Source: a virus (Duplodnaviria > Caudoviricetes). Taken from it: DNA of 38,561 bases. The translations under genes were made by a program, and so were the position numbers. The stretch is from the IMG/VR virus record IMGVR_UViG_3300029821_000128, positions 1-38,561 of that record. One strand, given 5' to 3'. How positions within the stretch are numbered: the stretch's first letter is position 1; each line of letters begins with the position of its first letter. The notes below the pieces were generated by a model. That model had not been told where the DNA came from. It made no database searches and worked only from the letters and a program-made list of their open reading frames with translations. Shown piece by piece: positions 10,301-25,782 of the stretch.

Positions 10301-10711
10301 GATCGTGCCGCCGCTGGCTTTTTTGAGTTTCGCCAGGATTTCGTCGGAGTTTTTTCCGATGCTGCGAGTATAATCGTCGAAGGATGATTTTGCTTCCTGA
10401 AGTTTGGCTCCCTGTGAAGCAATATCCCAGCCCTCTGCAAGCAACTGCTTGCCCTTGCCAAGAATTTCCCAGGCCTGGTTAACGCCAGTCGCGAAATCCG
10501 CCCATGAGAGTTTCGCCTTTTTGGTTTCCTGCGAGGTTTTCTGAAGCGAATTGCCGGTCTGCAAAATTGTCCGAACAAGCTTATCCAGATCGCGGCCAGT
10601 CTTTTGTGTTTCGCGGCCGAGATCGTCAAGACCCTGGTCGACTTTGTTGATTTCTTCAACAGCGACCGAACCGTCAGCCTTGATTATGATTTTCAGCTCG
10701 CGAGTATTCAT
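7346..10711 (-). CDS. Tail tape measure protein, 1121 aa
   Basis: Long Ala/Gln-rich helical ORF after chaperone; N-terminal ELKIIIKADG and GLGRNSPLILDNLGI motif common in TMPs. Confidence 0.9.
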   Translation of the reverse strand: MNTRELKIIIKADGSVAVEEINKVDQGLDDLGRETQKTGRDLDKLVRTILQTGNSLQKTSQETKKAKLSWADFATGVNQAWEILGKGKQLLAEGWDIASQGAKLQEAKSSFDDYTRSIGKNSDEILAKLKKASGGTIDDMGLITTASKAMSLGVTTDSDKMANLLEIARNKARLFGIGTNQAFEDIVTGLGRNSPLILDNLGIKIPAGFDEMTKGMSDADKTAKLLELTLVEGNKQLKEMGGLTNTNADEMRAFEAEVTNLKNDFGGLLSQGLRPVVYALRSDIIPAVRDVISIFTEWLNINEKIEKTLRQQGSAGVIATKRILVADAEKRREELGRLYQQSSRGFSSYDQQRIGLNYAGDRNASIEEIRKAIWSQIGNANIEIARLTKEIEKAKVDGLESIKEAQANEIRKAQFAAQNILKGLDSQQGQWKTLNFLSSGYLGDESLVQFQSSAKNAGEAAKVSGKSAKEAAEYYYSLASAIDAAYASGQKLPVSLNNAQAGMESLGDAALSFADNLRLSNPDWFRGELARIAKEAAEVANTFGDVKINADLFSEKSLANAKTTVQYLQKGIAGYLNLTVPSQTTSAWDQYGGNILSAIWSAGTDSDDKKQKQKLSGTIAEAVAQGFANADLSNFANSMGSVLSQVFSRSIAQNNPILNAAGGINFGNLGINMAAGFALDKLTGTGGIFGKRQEKFKAETLQAASDLRSQMGQAWVKSFETSIQPYLTYDHQRELAEGRYSYNGTQTGYSWSNSGGGWPFGDKTRTYNLIDQGASAALAKLTKAIENAEKYNRSVEMGYELQSAKGLDYQALVAQESAYRRAAANAYGGTYSLNWSDGGKDTADLAEAAHEIKMAAAEMARSLGQANADRFATVAGGFAKYAPWLNSIQTPGNAASGLRISMRGDGIFGGATSWQNFLQAPTTSQMSDLSSAQQYDAFAALQTSLMDRNIPSYLLDMVKQAGTAGYELEELRLTDPELYTERYLEQIEKQMSASEEVMRRQEQIFKDGAKSYEERVSALDLYEQSMASYHQSKLDKLRTEKQLEEQEKQLMAEARQAKMESALSLIGEVSQRGDRIMIIQAGDAATAIEELMIEFVDNPEVTAVLQSTLETTKAKARWNKY

Positions 10712-11004
10712 CGATTCCTTCGTTTCAGCGCAGACCTTCTTTCAGTCACGCTCATGGTAGTTTTGTCTTTCTTACCAAATAGCAGAGGCACTGTTTCATC
10801 GATAATTGGGCAATCAGCCAGGTCTTTACGTGCAATCAGATAGGCTAGATAGTCCATCGCTTCAACCTGTTCGACGCTGAAACCATATCCTCTGCAAATT
10901 TTCAGTTTACTTTCCCATCTCGTTACCTCAAGAGGCTTTGATGTTAATTCCCGGCTCCGCTTTACGGAGCCAGATGAGGGTCGAGTATCGAATCGAGAGC
11001 TGGG
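10708..11004 (-). CDS. Tail assembly chaperone extension (gpT-like), probably made by -1 frameshift
   Basis: Open -1 frame overlapping the chaperone 3' end with no good start; fills the gap to TMP and ends in ATGA overlap (...RRSALKRRNR*). Confidence 0.65.
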   Translation of the reverse strand, partial: PSSRFDTRPSSGSVKRSRELTSKPLEVTRWESKLKICRGYGFSVEQVEAMDYLAYLIARKDLADCPIIDETVPLLFGKKDKTTMSVTERRSALKRRNR

Positions 11005-11381
11005 TTAAAGACCTTTTTCTCCACCCAGGTGCGAGATATGATCTGCAGGAGATCGAGCTGTTCACCAAACAATTCAAGAACCTGTTCGCGAGTGAATTGT
11101 ATCTCAGACTTCGGATTCATGGCGATTTCAACAACCCTTACGGCATGGTCTACGCTTTTGCCGACTCTTGCGATAAGCATATCAGCGATATCGCGCTCTG
11201 CTTTGTTGGTTTCAGCTTCAGCTTTCGCCAGCTCTTTGTCTTCCTTTATAAAGTCTTGATATGCAAAACTCTGGGCCAAAGAATACTTCAGCTCAATGGG
11301 TTTGCCGTCAATTTCGATGAAGAGGCGATTGCCGGCTTCTCGCCAGAAGTAGCGGGTAGTTGTTTTATTGGTTAGTTTCAT
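10962..11381 (-). CDS. Tail assembly chaperone (lambda gpG-like), 139 aa
   Basis: Position between tail tube and TMP; GGGAG RBS. Confidence 0.7.
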   Translation of the reverse strand: MKLTNKTTTRYFWREAGNRLFIEIDGKPIELKYSLAQSFAYQDFIKEDKELAKAEAETNKAERDIADMLIARVGKSVDHAVRVVEIAMNPKSEIQFTREQVLELFGEQLDLLQIISRTWVEKKVFNPALDSILDPHLAP

Positions 11382-17960: not shown

Positions 17961-19173
17961 TGGCAACCTCTTCGAGCCAAATATAATACACATCGTTGCT
18001 CGATGTCACTTTCTTAACCTTGAACGATGAATTTCTTGCAAAAAGAACCTCTTGCTCCGCTGGGTTAAACTCAGTAAAATCAGCGCCATTCAGCGACTTG
18101 ATAAACATTTGCACCTGGCCATCGGGATTATAGACGTCGCCTTTTGTTGTAGAGAGAAATTGCTTAAAAGGGAATGTAGCTGATGGCTTAAATTGCGACA
18201 CATAATCTTGAGCGGCCTGTTTATCATTGAAGAAAAGCGACCTGGTAACCTCACCTTTATATTTTGGTTGAGCAGCAATGATCTTATCAAGGCTTTTAAC
18301 AATTTTTTCCTCAGTTTCTGTCAGCGGCGCATCGTCTCTAAGCTTTTCATTCAAAACATAACTGCCACCTGAAACATAAGCATTTACGGCATACTGGTCT
18401 TCATCTTCAAGCTGTTTGGCCTCTTTTATTACGGCATTAAGGCGAGGACGCAGGTCTGGCGGATAATTTTCAGGTTTTGGCTGCCAGACGTCTTTTCCCG
18501 GATTATAATCCCATCCATCAGGAACATGCGGGCTGATTTTGACTGCTTCGATTTCGCCTTTGCTGACTTCCAGGCCCTTCGTTTCAACTTCGAATTTGGA
18601 AAGCGAAACGACCCGACAACGACAGCCCCAGCCGTTCGGCGGGTAATATTTATCCCAGAATGGATCATCATGCCGGAATATTTTTCCGTTAAGCACGCGA
18701 TGAGCGTCTCTGGTTCTGCCGTCCATGACCGCAACGTATTTCCAGTAAGGGCGCAGCCTGGTGCTACCTTTCATTTCCTTGTATCGACCCGCCATGTAGG
18801 CAGTTTGCATATTGGTGCGGTAGATGGTTTTCAATCGCCAGGGCGCAGAAAGATCAACTTCTTTTTGTGAGCCGTCTGGGCGATCAATGTTCTTTTTGCC
18901 CCACCAGCCTTTCTTTTCGAGAAGCAGTTGCAGGTCTTTCTTGAAGCTTTCGAAACTTTTGCCGCCATTCTGAGCGTCCTCGACGGCCTTGCGGATATCG
19001 ACCAGCACGTCGAGTTGAGTGACACCGGCGACGGTGAAGGCTCTGGTGTGTGCTTCGCGCTTCATTTCGTGCCAATCAAAACTGACCTGGTAGCCCTTCT
19101 TTTCGAAGTATTTGATAGCTTCGTCAGGTGGCAGGTTGAAAGCGCCCTTTAAAATGTCGGCATCACCTGGCAT
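17950..19173 (-). CDS. muF: MuF (gp30/SPP1 gp7-like) minor head protein with C-terminal ADP-ribosyltransferase domain, 407 aa
   Basis: AFTVAG, RLKTIYRTNMQTAY.AGR, YPPNGWGCRC MuF motifs; C-terminal AY..G.Y.LNEKLR, VTR, FLSTT, EQEVLF (R-S-E clade ART). Confidence 0.88.
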   Translation of the reverse strand: MPGDADILKGAFNLPPDEAIKYFEKKGYQVSFDWHEMKREAHTRAFTVAGVTQLDVLVDIRKAVEDAQNGGKSFESFKKDLQLLLEKKGWWGKKNIDRPDGSQKEVDLSAPWRLKTIYRTNMQTAYMAGRYKEMKGSTRLRPYWKYVAVMDGRTRDAHRVLNGKIFRHDDPFWDKYYPPNGWGCRCRVVSLSKFEVETKGLEVSKGEIEAVKISPHVPDGWDYNPGKDVWQPKPENYPPDLRPRLNAVIKEAKQLEDEDQYAVNAYVSGGSYVLNEKLRDDAPLTETEEKIVKSLDKIIAAQPKYKGEVTRSLFFNDKQAAQDYVSQFKPSATFPFKQFLSTTKGDVYNPDGQVQMFIKSLNGADFTEFNPAEQEVLFARNSSFKVKKVTSSNDVYYIWLEEVANDE

Positions 19174-20679
19174 TCAGACGCCCCCATACGGCGGCAACGA
19201 AGTAGGCCCGTTCAAGCATTTTGGTGAGAGCATCGAATGACAGGCCGTCGTAAGTTTCGACCAGGTCAGTCATGATCTGCTCATAGCTCTGGCCATTCTC
19301 AATCAACTTAATAATAGGGGCCAGTATGCCTTCAGCCTGCTTTTGCAGTTCAACCGGGTTGATGTCGTCGACAAACTCTTCGACAACAGTCTGCGGATTC
19401 GCTAGTTTGCGAGGCATTCCCAGCCCTTTGCGCAGATAGTCAGCAATTTCTTCCTGAGATGGCACCGCAAAGTTTATCGGCTTGCCGGGTTGCTGGTTGG
19501 CTATCGGTGCCGATGGCTCTGCGAGGTCGAAGTCGTCTTCCTGCAGGTTGTATTCGCGCACGAAGTAGCTTTTCTTAAACTTGACGCCGGCCTGGCCGAG
19601 TTTGGTGTCGCGGTCGGCTTTTTGCGCCAGATCTTCGTCTTCTTCAAAATCGCGCCAGAGTTGCGGCACTGGAGCGCCGGGCATGTTGAGCTCGATAATC
19701 CATTTCACCAGGGTATTATTCAGGCATTCGCACAGCGCGTCAGCATCTGCTTTTGCAGTTTCGAGACGCACTTCGTTGCCGACCTCATCCCTGGCACGGC
19801 TGCCGCCGGCGGTATTCTGATTCGTGGTGCCAGTTTCGCCGAGAACGACTTCAGAGATTTGTTCGTCCATGTAGCGCACGAGCTTTTCGTAAGTGTCGAT
19901 ACCGCTTCTGGCCGCTTCGAGCAAAGTGACTTCCATGCCCTCGGGTATGGTTATGCCACTGTCGCTTGCTATAGCCTGCAAGGCAGCTTTTAAGGCGTCT
20001 TTCTCGCTTTTCGTGGCGCTGGCGAGCCGTATTTGTCGCAGAAAACCAGCCAGAAGGTAATACCTTTACGCTTGAAGAAGACCGGCCAGAAAAGGCTGTT
20101 GCCGAGCGCAAAACCATAAGGGTTTTCATAACGCGGCTCGAAGGTGAATTTGATGAATTTTCTTTCAGGCAGGGGGATGCCCTTGTATGTGTCTCGCATC
20201 GTAAGCAGGCGCATTTCAACACCGTCGCCTTCATCGACAAAAACGAAGCGCTGCGGCTTTCTGAATCTGATCTCGGCCGGTCGGATCTCGTTCTCTTCGC
20301 GCACCCACATCACTTCGCCGACTGAGTAGCCTTTCATGATTGCATCGAGAAAACCTGTGGTAGCTTTATCGATGTCGAGCTTGTCCATGTGTCGGCGAAG
20401 CAGCTCGGCAGATTCTTTGGCCTCAGCGGTATCGTCTGCTTCGTTGACTACCCATTCGCGTGAAGTTACAGCACGTTTGCGTTTGCTGATAACAGTTCTG
20501 ACGTGCGCGTCAGATTCGAGATCTTCGTAGGTATCGAGGGCAAGTGTTCCGCCGCGCGACTGCAAAACCTTGTCGGGATTCGGCAAAATGCCTCCGAACA
20601 GCGGCGTTTCGTCTCGGATAGGTGCTATTTCGACGGTCAGTTCTTTTGAAACGACCTTGGTATCTTTCTTTTTTGCCAT
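19163..20679 (-). pseudogene. Portal protein (Mu gp29, DUF935), split by a frameshift at about 20020
   Basis: 5' part has D.HV....KRK.AV, DAIMKGYSVGEVMW, W..FCDKYGSP; 3' part in another frame has SEVVLGETGTT, GNEVR...KADA; the usual xxGKYP between them is missing. Confidence 0.8.
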
Positions 20680-22685: not shown

Positions 22686-22988
22686 CTACTCCTTCGCGAT
22701 GCCCGGAGGGGCCTTAACGGCAAATTCTACGATATCGATACCATAGGGCAGAATTTTTGCCGACCAGGTAGCGCGATCGCGATCGACTACTTCGATTGCC
22801 TTGAGAGATTCAAGATAGTCGAGATATTTGCGGATTTCATGGGACAGCACCGGGTAGCCAGCGCATTGGAGAGCCGTAAAAAGTGTTTTTTCGTTGGCTC
22901 CGACTGGGCCGGTAGCATGCAGCAGGCGTAAAATCTGGCGGCGAACCGTTTTAACTTCAGCCAGGCGAATTTCATCAGTTTCAAGCAT
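22686..22988 (-). CDS. Mu gp26-like winged-helix protein, 100 aa
   Basis: RRQILRLL...YL...GIDIVE...PPGIA pattern and position. Confidence 0.75.
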   Translation of the reverse strand: MLETDEIRLAEVKTVRRQILRLLHATGPVGANEKTLFTALQCAGYPVLSHEIRKYLDYLESLKAIEVVDRDRATWSAKILPYGIDIVEFAVKAPPGIAKE

Positions 22989-22993
22989 TATTT

Positions 22994-23392
22994 TTAACCT
23001 CTTTTTGCGAGTTCATCAAGCTTGCGGTTGATCATTGCCAGTGCCGATAACACCTGATCTTCCTGGCGGCGACAGTCGTCTTTCAATACATAACTGCGCG
23101 GCATTGCCGCAAATTCGGCCCGCATTTCAGCTATGCTCACTTCGATAGATCCCAGCCGCTGCAGAAGCGCAACATCCTGTTTATTTATGCTGTTCTCAAC
23201 GGCAGTCAGACGTTGCGACAAGGCATCGTCGTCTTTTTCGGCATTCTGTTTAATCGCCATCAGGCGTTGTGAAAGCGCCTCTTTGTTTTCGTTTTCATTC
23301 TTGCCCTGCAGCCAGCGAATCAGCCCGACGAGAAAGCCAGACCATGCGAGGACGAGCGTGAGAAGAATTGGTATGATTTGATGTATCTCCAT
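22994..23392 (-). CDS. Membrane-anchored coiled-coil protein (Mu gp25 position), 132 aa
   Basis: N-terminal TM; three 18-aa ALxQRLxxI/V repeats; YVLKDD motif. Confidence 0.7.
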   Translation of the reverse strand: MEIHQIIPILLTLVLAWSGFLVGLIRWLQGKNENENKEALSQRLMAIKQNAEKDDDALSQRLTAVENSINKQDVALLQRLGSIEVSIAEMRAEFAAMPRSYVLKDDCRRQEDQVLSALAMINRKLDELAKRG

Positions 23393-23406: not shown

Positions 23407-23568
23407 TTAGAATTTGAAATTGAAGCTGGTGCCGATCTTAAAATCAGGCTTCTGGCCTTTACCGACCTTGAGGTCAGCAAAGATATGCCGGGCCTTCAGT
23501 CCAAGACTGACACTTTTCTGATCAGCCTGAACGGTCACTTCGCCGCGTCCAGGCTCGATTGAGGGTTT
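23407..23568 (-). CDS. Unannotated -1 frame extension of holin-like gene (or 43-aa ORF from GTG 23538)
   Basis: Open frame KPSIEPGRGEVTVQADQKSVSLGLKARHIFADLKVGKGQKPDFKIGTSFNFKF* fills the intergenic gap; slippery A AAC CCT at 23562-23568. Confidence 0.65.
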   Translation of the reverse strand, partial: KPSIEPGRGEVTVQADQKSVSLGLKARHIFADLKVGKGQKPDFKIGTSFNFKF

Positions 23569-23933
23569 ACGGTAACAGCTTTCGAGAGCTTATCGGCGGC
23601 GCTCAAACCCTGCGCCATGAGCTTGGCATCAACTTCAAGCGCTTCAGGCAATTCTTTGCCGAAGGCATCTTTGAAACCATCTCGCAGAATCGACATGAAT
23701 TCGCCGTATTTATTAAGCTTGTCGAGTTTGCCTGCTTTCTGCAGCTGTTCGACCAGCGCCCAGATAGGGTAGGCATAGTCACGCACCCAGGGTCGGCCTT
23801 TTTCGACAAGCGCCACGATGCTGTCATCGATAGTGGTTTTCGTTTTCGGCGCAACAGCCTTGAGAATCGCATAGAGCGACATGATCAGCGAAACAACAAT
23901 AGCCACATTGGCCGGGGTCAGGTATTCAGACAT
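23535..23933 (-). CDS. Holin-like membrane protein, 132 aa
   Basis: Follows endolysin; AAGGAG RBS; single N-terminal TM followed by PKTKTTIDD. Confidence 0.6.
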   Translation of the reverse strand: MSEYLTPANVAIVVSLIMSLYAILKAVAPKTKTTIDDSIVALVEKGRPWVRDYAYPIWALVEQLQKAGKLDKLNKYGEFMSILRDGFKDAFGKELPEALEVDAKLMAQGLSAADKLSKAVTVNPQSSLDAAK

Positions 23934-23944
23934 GGTTTATCTCC

Positions 23945-24349
23945 TTAAAATCTGAGGTAAAAATGGGGCCGGTCGACAAACTTCTTATAGTTGCCGCCCC
24001 ACGAAAGGCCGATTTCAGCCGCAATTTCACCCATTCGCGCCCACAGCGCCGGGTCGTTCCAGATCGCGACTTTTCTGCCGTCAACCAGGCGTTGCGGCAC
24101 AGCGTCAAAAGCGAGAGATGCCGGCTTGTTGTTTACGGTATGATTGTGATCACTGCGACCGCCAGGCAGCATCGTCACCTTTTTGCCTGGTTTTGTTCGG
24201 CCCAGCGCGAAAAGATCATCCTGCTCCGCGTTCGAGCGCCAGGTCATATAGATCAGCACATCGATACCGTCTTTTTTGCACAACTGCACAAACTGCCGTG
24301 CCAGTGGCTGCAGCGTCGGATGCAGATCTTCAATTTTTCTGCTCGCCAT
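23945..24349 (-). CDS. Endolysin, peptidase M15 (L-Ala-D-Glu peptidase-like), 134 aa
   Basis: RS..EQ..L...GRT, S.HN, AFD, WGG...FVDRPHF motifs. Confidence 0.92.
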   Translation of the reverse strand: MASRKIEDLHPTLQPLARQFVQLCKKDGIDVLIYMTWRSNAEQDDLFALGRTKPGKKVTMLPGGRSDHNHTVNNKPASLAFDAVPQRLVDGRKVAIWNDPALWARMGEIAAEIGLSWGGNYKKFVDRPHFYLRF

Positions 24350-24703: not shown

Positions 24704-24770
24704 AACAAATGATTCGATCGCTGCCTTAACGGTAGCAAAAAACTCAGATGCTCGTAACATCTGAGTTTTT
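24704..24770 (+). ncRNA. Predicted ~67-nt antisense sRNA with two hairpins
   Basis: Between the promoter and a terminator; hairpin GCUGCC-UUAAC-GGUAGC then terminator stem + U5; start position approximate. Confidence 0.55.
24737..24770. terminator. Bidirectional intrinsic terminator
   Basis: AAAAAA-CTCAGATG-CTCGTAA-CATCTGAG-TTTTT; abuts ImmA stop codon. Confidence 0.8.
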
Positions 24771-25356
24771 ACTTTTTCTTCATACTGTTAACTCTATAGC
24801 AGGCTGCCTCATATGAGACGCCAAAAACTTCAGCTATTTCATTAATTGTAGCTCCTTCTCGCAAAAGCATTTCCACTTGAAAAGTAGGCATCAAAAATCT
24901 TGCTGCAAAAGCGTTTGCCTGAATTTCTGGATCTTCATATGGTTTCAGAAATGATCTATTCAGACGTATTCCAGAACTTTCTCCTCGCAAAGAAGTCGAC
25001 TCTCTGAGATATTTCGCGTGAACAGCAATATGACAAATTTCATGCGCCACAGTAAATCTTGCTCGCCCATAACCCGAACTTGATTCATCACCAAGAGAAT
25101 CATATGTTTCATGCGATAGAATTATCTGCTTTGACTTACAAAGAGTCATAGCTTCCACATCTGAAGGCAAATGTTTAATTTGATACTCGTATCCCAACAA
25201 CCATTTCAAATCTGCTTCGAATAGTGAAGCCAAGTCAATCGAAGACGGTTCTTTCAAACTTTCAACAGCAACTCGCTGCCTTATTGCAAGTCCGATGCCT
25301 TCAAGATCGTTCCAGCTTCGCGAAGGGACTCTGGGAACTTTATTATTACTCGTCAT
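24769..25356 (-). CDS. ImmA/IrrE family metallopeptidase (DUF955), 195 aa
   Basis: RARFTVAHEICH (HExxH), EIQANAFAARFLMP, FGVSYEAA HTH tail. Confidence 0.92.
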   Translation of the reverse strand: MTSNNKVPRVPSRSWNDLEGIGLAIRQRVAVESLKEPSSIDLASLFEADLKWLLGYEYQIKHLPSDVEAMTLCKSKQIILSHETYDSLGDESSSGYGRARFTVAHEICHIAVHAKYLRESTSLRGESSGIRLNRSFLKPYEDPEIQANAFAARFLMPTFQVEMLLREGATINEIAEVFGVSYEAACYRVNSMKKK

Positions 25357-25711
25357 CGTCTTTGGGTTTCCCCCTTAATACTTTCAAGATCTGTTCTGCT
25401 TGGTCATCCGTTAAGCCTTTTAGAGCTCTACCCAAAGAGAGAGCTGCATCCAACTGAAGGTCATGCAAACCCTCAGTATCAAGTTCGATATGCTTTCTCT
25501 GCTGAGCCGCGAGCCTCAATAGTTCATTTTCATCCGCACCGATAATTTTCGCTATTTTGACTATTCTTTCTGGACTTGGTGGAGCTCTATGCCCTAACTC
25601 AACATCAGAAAGATAGACAGCGGAACATTCAAGCGCTTTACCTAGCTGTCTCAAAGTTATTCTTGAGTGCTCTCGAAGCTCTCGAACCCTTTCTCCGAAT
25701 TTCTGCGACAT
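25346..25711 (-). CDS. XRE-family HTH regulator, 121 aa
   Basis: ATG 25711 with GAGGAG RBS; FGERVRELR...LRQLG...YLSDVELG.RAPP. Confidence 0.9.
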   Translation of the reverse strand: MSQKFGERVRELREHSRITLRQLGKALECSAVYLSDVELGHRAPPSPERIVKIAKIIGADENELLRLAAQQRKHIELDTEGLHDLQLDAALSLGRALKGLTDDQAEQILKVLRGKPKDDDE

Positions 25712-25782
25712 TCCGTTTCTCCTCATTGTAAGTGCAGTTTGTTCTAGTTTTACTCGAACACATTTACCTGTCACTACATGAT

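Follow-up and report, generated by a model that had tools for sequence, protein, structure and literature searches.

The locus examined here raises the question of how a phage without a recognisable spanin might break the outer membrane of its host. Such phages account for 91 of the 677 phages of Gram-negative hosts covered by one survey (PMC6139136), about one in seven. The initial annotation had proposed that a programmed −1 frameshift in a holin-like gene appends a β-strand tail with an outer-membrane-like end. Gene callers cannot see such a product, and the predicted tail is a concrete, testable candidate for the outer membrane step.

The window, that is, the whole stretch of DNA analysed, is a virus record of 38,561 bases carrying a Mu-type transposase, Gam, GemA, Mor, a gp27 terminase, a portal and head genes. 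It is a Mu-like prophage, probably with Ca. Riflebacteria as its host. The 132-aa protein encoded by the holin-like gene is identical in a genome contig of Ca. Riflebacteria (L006), and its family is present in 8 of 87 genomes of that phylum. Omp85 was found in all five tested Ca. Riflebacteria genomes that carry the family, and the host therefore likely has an outer membrane and BAM. Two further features of the record were observed. The portal gene (19163-20679, minus strand) is split in two with a break near 19985. Relative to L006, in which the two portal halves share one frame, 25 bases are gapped in the window, and the split probably reflects a misassembly or a recent deletion. A pair of genes for an XRE-type HTH protein and an IrrE/M78 peptidase (24769-25774, minus strand) is inserted, in a low-GC stretch, between the early genes and the lysis cassette.

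The lysis cassette runs on the minus strand in the order M15 endolysin, 132-aa gene, −1 tail, PHROG 462 membrane protein, PHROG 436 and terminase. The endolysin (23945..24349) is an M15-type peptidase (Pfam PF13539, E 1.5e-7; PHROG 465 endolysin, E 7e-24) in whose sequence no N-terminal hydrophobic anchor was seen; it looks soluble, and a holin would therefore be needed. Only two membrane proteins are encoded in the cassette, one of them by the 132-aa gene. The other, a small protein at the position of Mu gp25 (22994..23392, minus strand; PHROG 462, E 1.2e-8; no Pfam match to DUF2730), is a candidate for the other holin or a releasin. Mu has its endolysin at gp22, its spanins at gp23 and gp23.1 and its releasin at gp25 (PMC9239132); by this numbering, the 132-aa gene therefore sits in the spanin slot, between the endolysin and the gp25-like gene. 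The PHROG 436 gene (22686-22988, minus strand) has G GCC CCT six codons ahead of its stop, a −1 frame that reads for 182 codons into the terminase small subunit, and a weak stem (−4.8); this pattern possibly arose by chance.

The gene for the 132-aa short form occupies 23535..23933 on the minus strand and encodes an N-terminal transmembrane helix, a PxTxTxxDD motif and three more helices, in an LL-H-holin-like arrangement. Near its 3′ end, the slippery site A AAC CCT (23562..23568, minus strand) is in frame (GTA AAC CCT) and has no long homopolymer run; no upstream Shine-Dalgarno-like stimulator was evident by eye. A spacer of 6 nt (23561-23556) separates the heptamer from a stem (23524..23555, minus strand) of 10 bp (23555-23546 with 23533-23524) around a 12-nt loop containing the 0-frame TGA. 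Read from 23568, the −1 frame gives 53 residues ending FKIGTSFNFKF*, for a predicted long product of 175 aa. The tail itself (23407..23565, minus strand) comprises 52 residues and a stop, with a short linker followed by four amphipathic β-strands. The heptamer, spacer, stem and 53-codon frame of the initial annotation were thus all confirmed, the stem at 10 bp. The hairpin in the window alone is moderately above chance, with z scores of −3.0 and −2.4 in tight windows and −0.75 and −0.37 in wider ones, and the case against chance rests on its relatives.

Homologues were gathered as 79 proteins and 64 loci (L001-L064). Duplicates, loci cut by contig ends (L041 and L047) and all loci scoring <55 bits, mostly proteins that share only the PxTxTxxDD motif, were removed, leaving 23 distinct full-length loci, including the window copy, with identities down to about 30%. 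A homologous β-rich −1 tail, running 30-64 codons beyond the 0-frame stop, is present in 21 of these 23 loci. The other two, L032 and L048, have neither slip site nor tail, so that the tail is not obligatory for the family.

At the site, 20 of the 21 tailed loci have C_CCT and the remaining one C_CCC. The proline codon of the site is CCT in these 20, against 13 of 96 other proline codons in the same genes; when the loci are gathered by hand into 12 groups, CCT is retained in 11 (binomial p 3e-9). The preceding codon ends in C in all 21 loci, compared with 115 of 202 Asn/Asp codons elsewhere. In 19 of 21 loci the base ahead of the P-site codon equals that codon's first base (A AAC, G GAC, T TCC), the pattern that re-pairing of both tRNAs would produce. 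The heptamer nevertheless varies in its first four bases (A AAC, G GAC, T TCC, C AAC), and the conserved core is therefore C_CCU. The site described earlier as a canonical heptamer formally fits X XXY YYZ, but what has been conserved is this core rather than the heptamer as a whole. An Asn-Pro pair, N123-P124, is invariant in 21 close homologues, directly after a linker of variable length.

Stems starting 3-10 nt downstream have a median of −15.0 kcal/mol, against −4.2 kcal/mol at control positions. In 17 of 21 loci, which are not independent of one another, the stem is strong, being equalled by ≤6% of the locus's own controls; it is weak in L009, L031, L044 and L045. Stems of distant loci differ in sequence and loop size. 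Among seven close loci, 97% of stem cells are paired, with one compensatory and three one-sided changes, a covariation that does not clearly beat its shuffled control (34/500). The same seven loci differ, beyond the 0-frame stop, by 213 synonymous and 75 non-synonymous codons in the −1 frame, with no stops; the corresponding figures for the other two frames are 8/264 and 29/249, with 8 and 11 stops. This pattern indicates that the −1 frame is under coding selection and that the other two frames are not. In 10 of the 21 tailed loci, the tail has no ATG, GTG or TTG from which it could start.

One relative, P0071, encodes the N-domain and the tail in a single frame. Its tail matches the tail profile with a probability of 94% (E 1.3e-7) by profile comparison, which alone detects the likeness, as the window tail and P0071 give no alignment by BLASTP. 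The DNA surrounding the fusion was not found, so a sequencing or assembly indel may underlie it, although three contigs carry the record. Searches for other longer proteins containing the tail returned none, which is weak evidence since the same searches also missed P0071.

A tail-profile search of the host phylum gave 10 matches in 8 of 87 genomes. In genome G026, two loci (L083, 1082-1510, and L084) carry the same site and tail, with a long-range stem, on a 143-aa membrane protein that matches neither the 132-aa family profile nor any other family; the usual version of the gene is found in the same genome (L029). Comparison of these loci documents the transfer of the site-stem-tail module to a second membrane protein.

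The window contains a second signal of the same type. A gene (11381-10962, minus strand; feature 10708..11381) flanked by a tail gene (PHROG 290) and a gene for 1,121 aa has C GAC CCT at 10983-10977 together with a stem; its −1 frame of 90 codons ends at the start of the next gene. From its position, it is presumably a tail assembly chaperone gene. A −1 frame of 79-94 codons is present in 13 of 13 distinct loci of its family, with [AG]AC CCT as the slip site in 11 and G GGA AAC, a slip site of the textbook type, in 2. In-frame RAC CCT occurs only five times in the 9,852 codons of the window, and a stem below −13 kcal/mol accompanies it at the lysis gene and chaperone-position sites only. Frameshifts in tail assembly chaperone genes are established (PMC5009743). 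Because the fusion, the module transfer and the chaperone-position signal add weight to the conservation data, we consider a programmed −1 frameshift in the 132-aa gene very likely. The original frameshift claim is strongly supported by site, stem, coding selection, missing starts and fusion taken together.

The AF2 model of the short form (pLDDT 86.5) has helices at residues 7-30, 34-66, 72-91 and 97-120. From hydropathy and flanking K/R counts, residues 10-28 (23850..23906, minus strand) form a predicted transmembrane helix. K/R residues are more frequent after this helix than before it in 77 of 79 homologues and absent before it in 65 of 79. This bias predicts an N-out/C-in orientation and hence a cytoplasmic C-terminus, extending to the whole family an early caveat that the lysines after the helix point that way. 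A simple bridge from the inner to the outer membrane would then require a translocation step.

The term ‘holin-like’ fared less well. The best viral fold matches of the short form are holins, including LL-H, but at non-significant values (Foldseek E 0.17-1.3, TM 0.33-0.47), and the top Atlas feature match, an LL-H holin cluster at 0.83, is of lead level. No Pfam family matches the N-domain significantly across 66 members, none of which is hit by the PF09682 (LL-H holin) profile at E <= 0.1; over the 87 genomes of the host phylum, this profile gave one sub-threshold hit. Foldseek searches of the PDB with the short-form and tail models returned nothing at E <= 0.001, and no match was found among 50,697 GenBank phage records. 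The similarity to holins is thus weak, and the 132-aa short form is likely a holin-type inner-membrane protein.

In PHROG, the only matches of the N-domain are three small families of unknown function (402, 9685 and 2738), reached through PxTxTxxDD. This motif also follows a hydrophobic helix in proteins of 50-90 aa (L025, L026, L053, L058, L060, L062, L064), some of them from viral contigs and resembling PHROG 402/2738/9685. It occurs twice after a helix in an MscS-like channel (L049), in a loop that we take to be cytoplasmic, and is possibly a general membrane-interface motif.

The tail is modelled as a four-strand meander (pLDDT 87.4). Across 24 tails, the β moment exceeds the α moment in every case, β-periodicity is significant in 18 (p < 0.05 vs shuffles), and the terminal residue is always hydrophobic (18 F, 4 L, 2 I). 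Gly stands at −6 or −8 in 22 of the 24, whereas the strict terminal GXXΦXΦ is found in 8; the window copy of this motif ends two residues early. All 24 tails carry a net charge of +2 to +7. The last strand of the window tail, KIGTSFNFKF (23410..23439, minus strand), has an aromatic last residue, a charged penultimate residue and an aromatic at −3. It fits the description of a β-signal given in PMC13721041, and BamA proteins of the host have similar C-terminal ends. No internal signal sequence was found in the tails, whose best 12-residue hydropathy is 0.2-1.4. The earlier claim of a β-strand tail with an end like that of outer membrane proteins is therefore supported, at the level of prediction, by the model, the periodicity and the terminal Phe.

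Fold comparison is less specific. The tightest overlays of nearly the whole tail model are on outer-membrane barrels, namely the membrane anchor of AtaA at 1.5 Å over 45 residues (Z 5.6), CdiB at 1.4 Å and Hia at 1.8 Å, every Z being < 6 and the AtaA/Hia values of 5.0-5.6 not decisive. All fold matches of the tail fall below Z 8, with gasdermins and soluble enzymes at equal Z. No Pfam family was significant for 19 tails, and the tail profile matched nothing in the PDB but antibody chains, all at E > 1, which were rejected. Longer tails of 70-73 aa occur in L020 (4354-4563) and L030 (1226-1444), with apparently one extra β-hairpin before the final strand and, by eye, growth from four to six strands.

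Fifteen loci, from Mu-like and non-Mu phages, were inspected for their lysis neighbourhood. In ten, a match to a wall-hydrolase family (M15, amidase_2, PHROG 894) lies within two genes upstream, two of these matches being below the Pfam cut-off. Two more have upstream DUF5675, which we take to be a possible endolysin, and in L029 the upstream gene resembles the L083 endolysin by eye; in L022 and L048 no endolysin was seen near the gene. In several non-Mu loci a further small gene for a membrane protein lies upstream and could encode the true holin. The non-Mu loci L020 (3766-3984), L024, L028, L039 and L044 have, between the endolysin and the 132-aa-type gene, a small ORF that is often Cys-rich.

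No lipobox o-spanin or u-spanin was found in or adjoining the gene by a rule-based scan of the window and 25 loci, which covered both strands of the window and up to 2.5 kb upstream and 1.5 kb downstream, with short flanks in several loci. The few hits all lie away from the gene. This agrees with the initial reading that the lysis cassette has no visible lipobox o-spanin. The LambdaSo spanin, however, was first missed and proved nested (10.1101/2024.01.23.576932), and hidden spanins are therefore possible in these phages too. No lipoprotein was found near the tail-less genes of L032 and L048. L032 lies in a Mu-like prophage; behind its tail-less gene comes a helical ORF of 83 aa (1929-2177), with no significant family hit and, by eye, a likeness to the soluble portion of LL-H holins.

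Starting from the signal, its conservation, the coding selection on the tail frame, the in-frame fusion, the module transfer and the lysis-cassette position, all documented by comparison of sequences, we infer the steps that would follow the frameshift. We propose that the frameshift makes a 132-aa holin-type protein and a 175-aa form that delivers the tail to the outer membrane on triggering, in place of a spanin, and we put the probability of this reading at about 0.45. At the site, the Pro tRNA would slip from CCU to CCC, aided by the preceding tRNA, which would re-pair as well, while the stem pauses the ribosome; the frequency of slippage would fix how many tail-bearing subunits there are per plain holin. 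Short and long forms would co-assemble N-out/C-in, with the tail harmless in the cytoplasm until triggering, when the C-terminal part would cross through, or flip at, the lesion. Once the wall is degraded, the tails may oligomerise, three four-strand tails forming a 12-strand barrel, and enter the outer membrane, perhaps with the help of BAM. Inserted tails would then tether the two membranes or hole the outer one.

It is the C-in charge bias that favours a holin-like protein delivering its tail upon triggering. Given an outer-membrane-like tail on a C-in anchor, the design would be one that keeps the tail in the cytoplasm up to holin triggering. Export of the tail would depend on an unproven step, with the anchor predicted C-in and no internal hydrophobic segment; that a holin can flip C-terminal cargo is a published proposal, backed by holin-endolysin fusions (PMC9527704). 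A more far-reaching view, which we hold tentatively and regard as doubtful, is that one gene is holin and spanin at once, an outer-membrane lysis factor that would stand as a third class next to spanins and disruptins. The C_CCU frameshift would then arm a fraction of the holin subunits with a mini β-barrel tail, the holin itself would flip this tail over the inner membrane on triggering, and the tails would assemble in the outer membrane without a signal peptide or a lipid anchor. The site-stem-tail cassette may be portable among unrelated holin-like proteins, and may be a common solution in phages without a recognisable spanin.

Five other explanations were weighed, and are given here in order of decreasing probability. 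The first of them, though unlikely, places the tail in the inner membrane, where long forms would oligomerise from the cytoplasm into a gasdermin-like β-pore that is itself the holin lesion. The short form would act as filler or antiholin, the short:long ratio setting the time of lysis as in a dual-start holin. Such a pore fits the predicted C-in topology without an export step, and gasdermin pores match the tail model at Z 5.1-5.4; the soluble-looking endolysin, and a gene that is one of only two for membrane proteins in the cassette, also agree with it. The gasdermin overlays are loose, however, with an rmsd of 3.5-4.6 Å against 1.5 Å for AtaA. An inner-membrane pore would also leave unexplained the always hydrophobic last residue, usually Phe, and the Gly that 22 of the 24 tails have at −6 or −8, and would leave the outer membrane step without an agent.

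A somewhat less probable reading inverts the unimolecular spanin. Here the helix would be a signal anchor, the C-terminus would be periplasmic from the start and the tail would be inserted by BAM, so that the long form spans the two membranes for as long as the wall is in place, with the short form as partner subunit. The β-signal-like end, Omp85 in the host genomes, the spanin-slot position, the variable linker length and the existence of an always-long form in P0071 would all suit such a bridge. What it does not accommodate is the charge distribution, with no K/R before the helix in 65 of 79 homologues and more after it in 77 of 79, nor the position of PxTxTxxDD after the helix of the MscS-like channel, in the presumably cytoplasmic loop.

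The frameshift may also be real and the tail not an inserted barrel, which we judge no more probable. The tail would then be a tethered, disruptin-like cationic peptide active on membranes, a β-signal mimic that jams BAM, or a soluble sheet that binds the endolysin or another phage protein. Every tail is cationic, and soluble proteins match its fold equally well; phiKT gp28, a small cationic peptide, can replace spanins (10.1101/515445), and β-signal mimics block BamA (PMC13721041). But gp28 is helical and free, whereas the tail is β-stranded and tethered, and both the strict hydrophobic alternation and the growth by whole hairpins, from four to six strands by eye in L020 and L030, fit a barrel better.

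A reading without frameshift, in which a small gene of its own encodes the tail and is translationally coupled through the GTGA overlap, is very unlikely. The initial annotation had named such an alternative, a 43-aa ORF from the GTG at 23536..23538 (minus strand), which overlaps the 0-frame stop. Of the 21 tailed loci, 10 do have a GTG or TTG across the stop and one more has it three codons earlier, and start/stop overlaps are common in phage operons. Beyond the ten loci that have no start, however, the close relative L001 has GTA in place of GTG and an intact tail. The ribosome-binding duplex of the window GTG, calculated with the anti-SD motif, reaches −3.9 kcal/mol, against −7.0 to −14.6 kcal/mol at four neighbouring starts. 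A separate gene would, moreover, explain neither the in-frame fusion nor the fixed CCT and the stem, and the 43-aa ORF is therefore disfavoured. Finally, a chance pattern in non-coding DNA, to which the non-significance of the hairpin by itself in wider windows might point, has a negligible probability in the face of the coding selection on the −1 frame and homologous tails in 24 sequences.

If the preferred reading, delivery of the tail to the outer membrane on triggering, is true, it would be an undescribed way for phages to break the host outer membrane. It would also bear on a problem raised by disruptins, namely how attack on the outer membrane is kept under holin control (10.1101/515445); a tail locked in the cytoplasm until triggering would answer it. 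No description of a frameshifted holin or of a β-tailed lysis protein was found among the papers listed by searches of an open-access library, and the available part of a frameshift review (PMC5009743) makes no mention of a holin.

As predicted from its sequence, the product falls outside the definitions of two-component spanins, u-spanins and disruptins (PMC6139136, 10.1101/515445). It shares with lambda Rz/Rz1 and Mu gp23/gp23.1 (PMC6139136, PMC9239132) the slot after the endolysin, an N-terminal helix followed by a helical domain, and a second reading frame overlapping the 3′ end; 116 o-spanins in a −1 frame are reported (PMC6139136). Here, in contrast, the second frame lacks a start, a signal peptide and a lipobox, and would be joined to the 0 frame through the shift; the N-in, C-out anchor of i-spanins is likewise not matched, the charge bias being opposite (N-out/C-in predicted in 77 of 79). 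Like the T1 u-spanin gp11 (PMC6139136), the long form is one chain from a lysis cassette, with a transmembrane helix and a β-rich region, and would in principle be able to touch both membranes. In gp11 the lipoprotein anchor is N-terminal and the helix C-terminal, whereas the long form has an N-terminal helix and no lipobox, and its presumed outer anchor is a C-terminal β sheet made by frameshift. The phiKT gp28 disruptin (10.1101/515445) is likewise a small cationic segment with a proposed role in breaching the outer membrane of a phage in which no spanin was found, but it is a free helical peptide independent of the holin, and the tail is β-stranded and tethered to a membrane protein.

The resemblance to TpeE-type holin-endolysin fusions (PMC9527704) lies in a single-helix N-out holin with an acidic N-terminus and C-terminal cargo. 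The cargo there is an in-frame endolysin, and here a β tail on a fraction of the subunits; the ‘membrane-weakening and flipping’ model is itself a proposal (PMC9527704). The anchors of the trimeric autotransporters AtaA and Hia share with the tail, as modelled, a four-strand C-terminal meander and an aromatic end (rmsd 1.5-1.8 Å), but the tail has no signal peptide, passenger or Pfam hit. LL-H holins (PF09682) resemble the model of the short form in having one N-terminal helix followed by further helices; they differ in that none of the 66 members of the present family gives a Pfam match. To our knowledge, neither a tail nor a frameshift is known for the LL-H family.

Whatever the function of the tail, this lysis-cassette gene is a likely further case of programmed frameshifting, and its C_CCU shift signal, used twice in one phage, could be used for mining other genomes. 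The slip site of the lambda G/GT frameshift is G GGA AAG. As in lambda G/GT, a −1 shift near the 3′ end yields a short and a C-terminally extended product in a set ratio (PMC5009743), whereas here the shift would act on a lysis-cassette membrane protein and its core is C_CCU.
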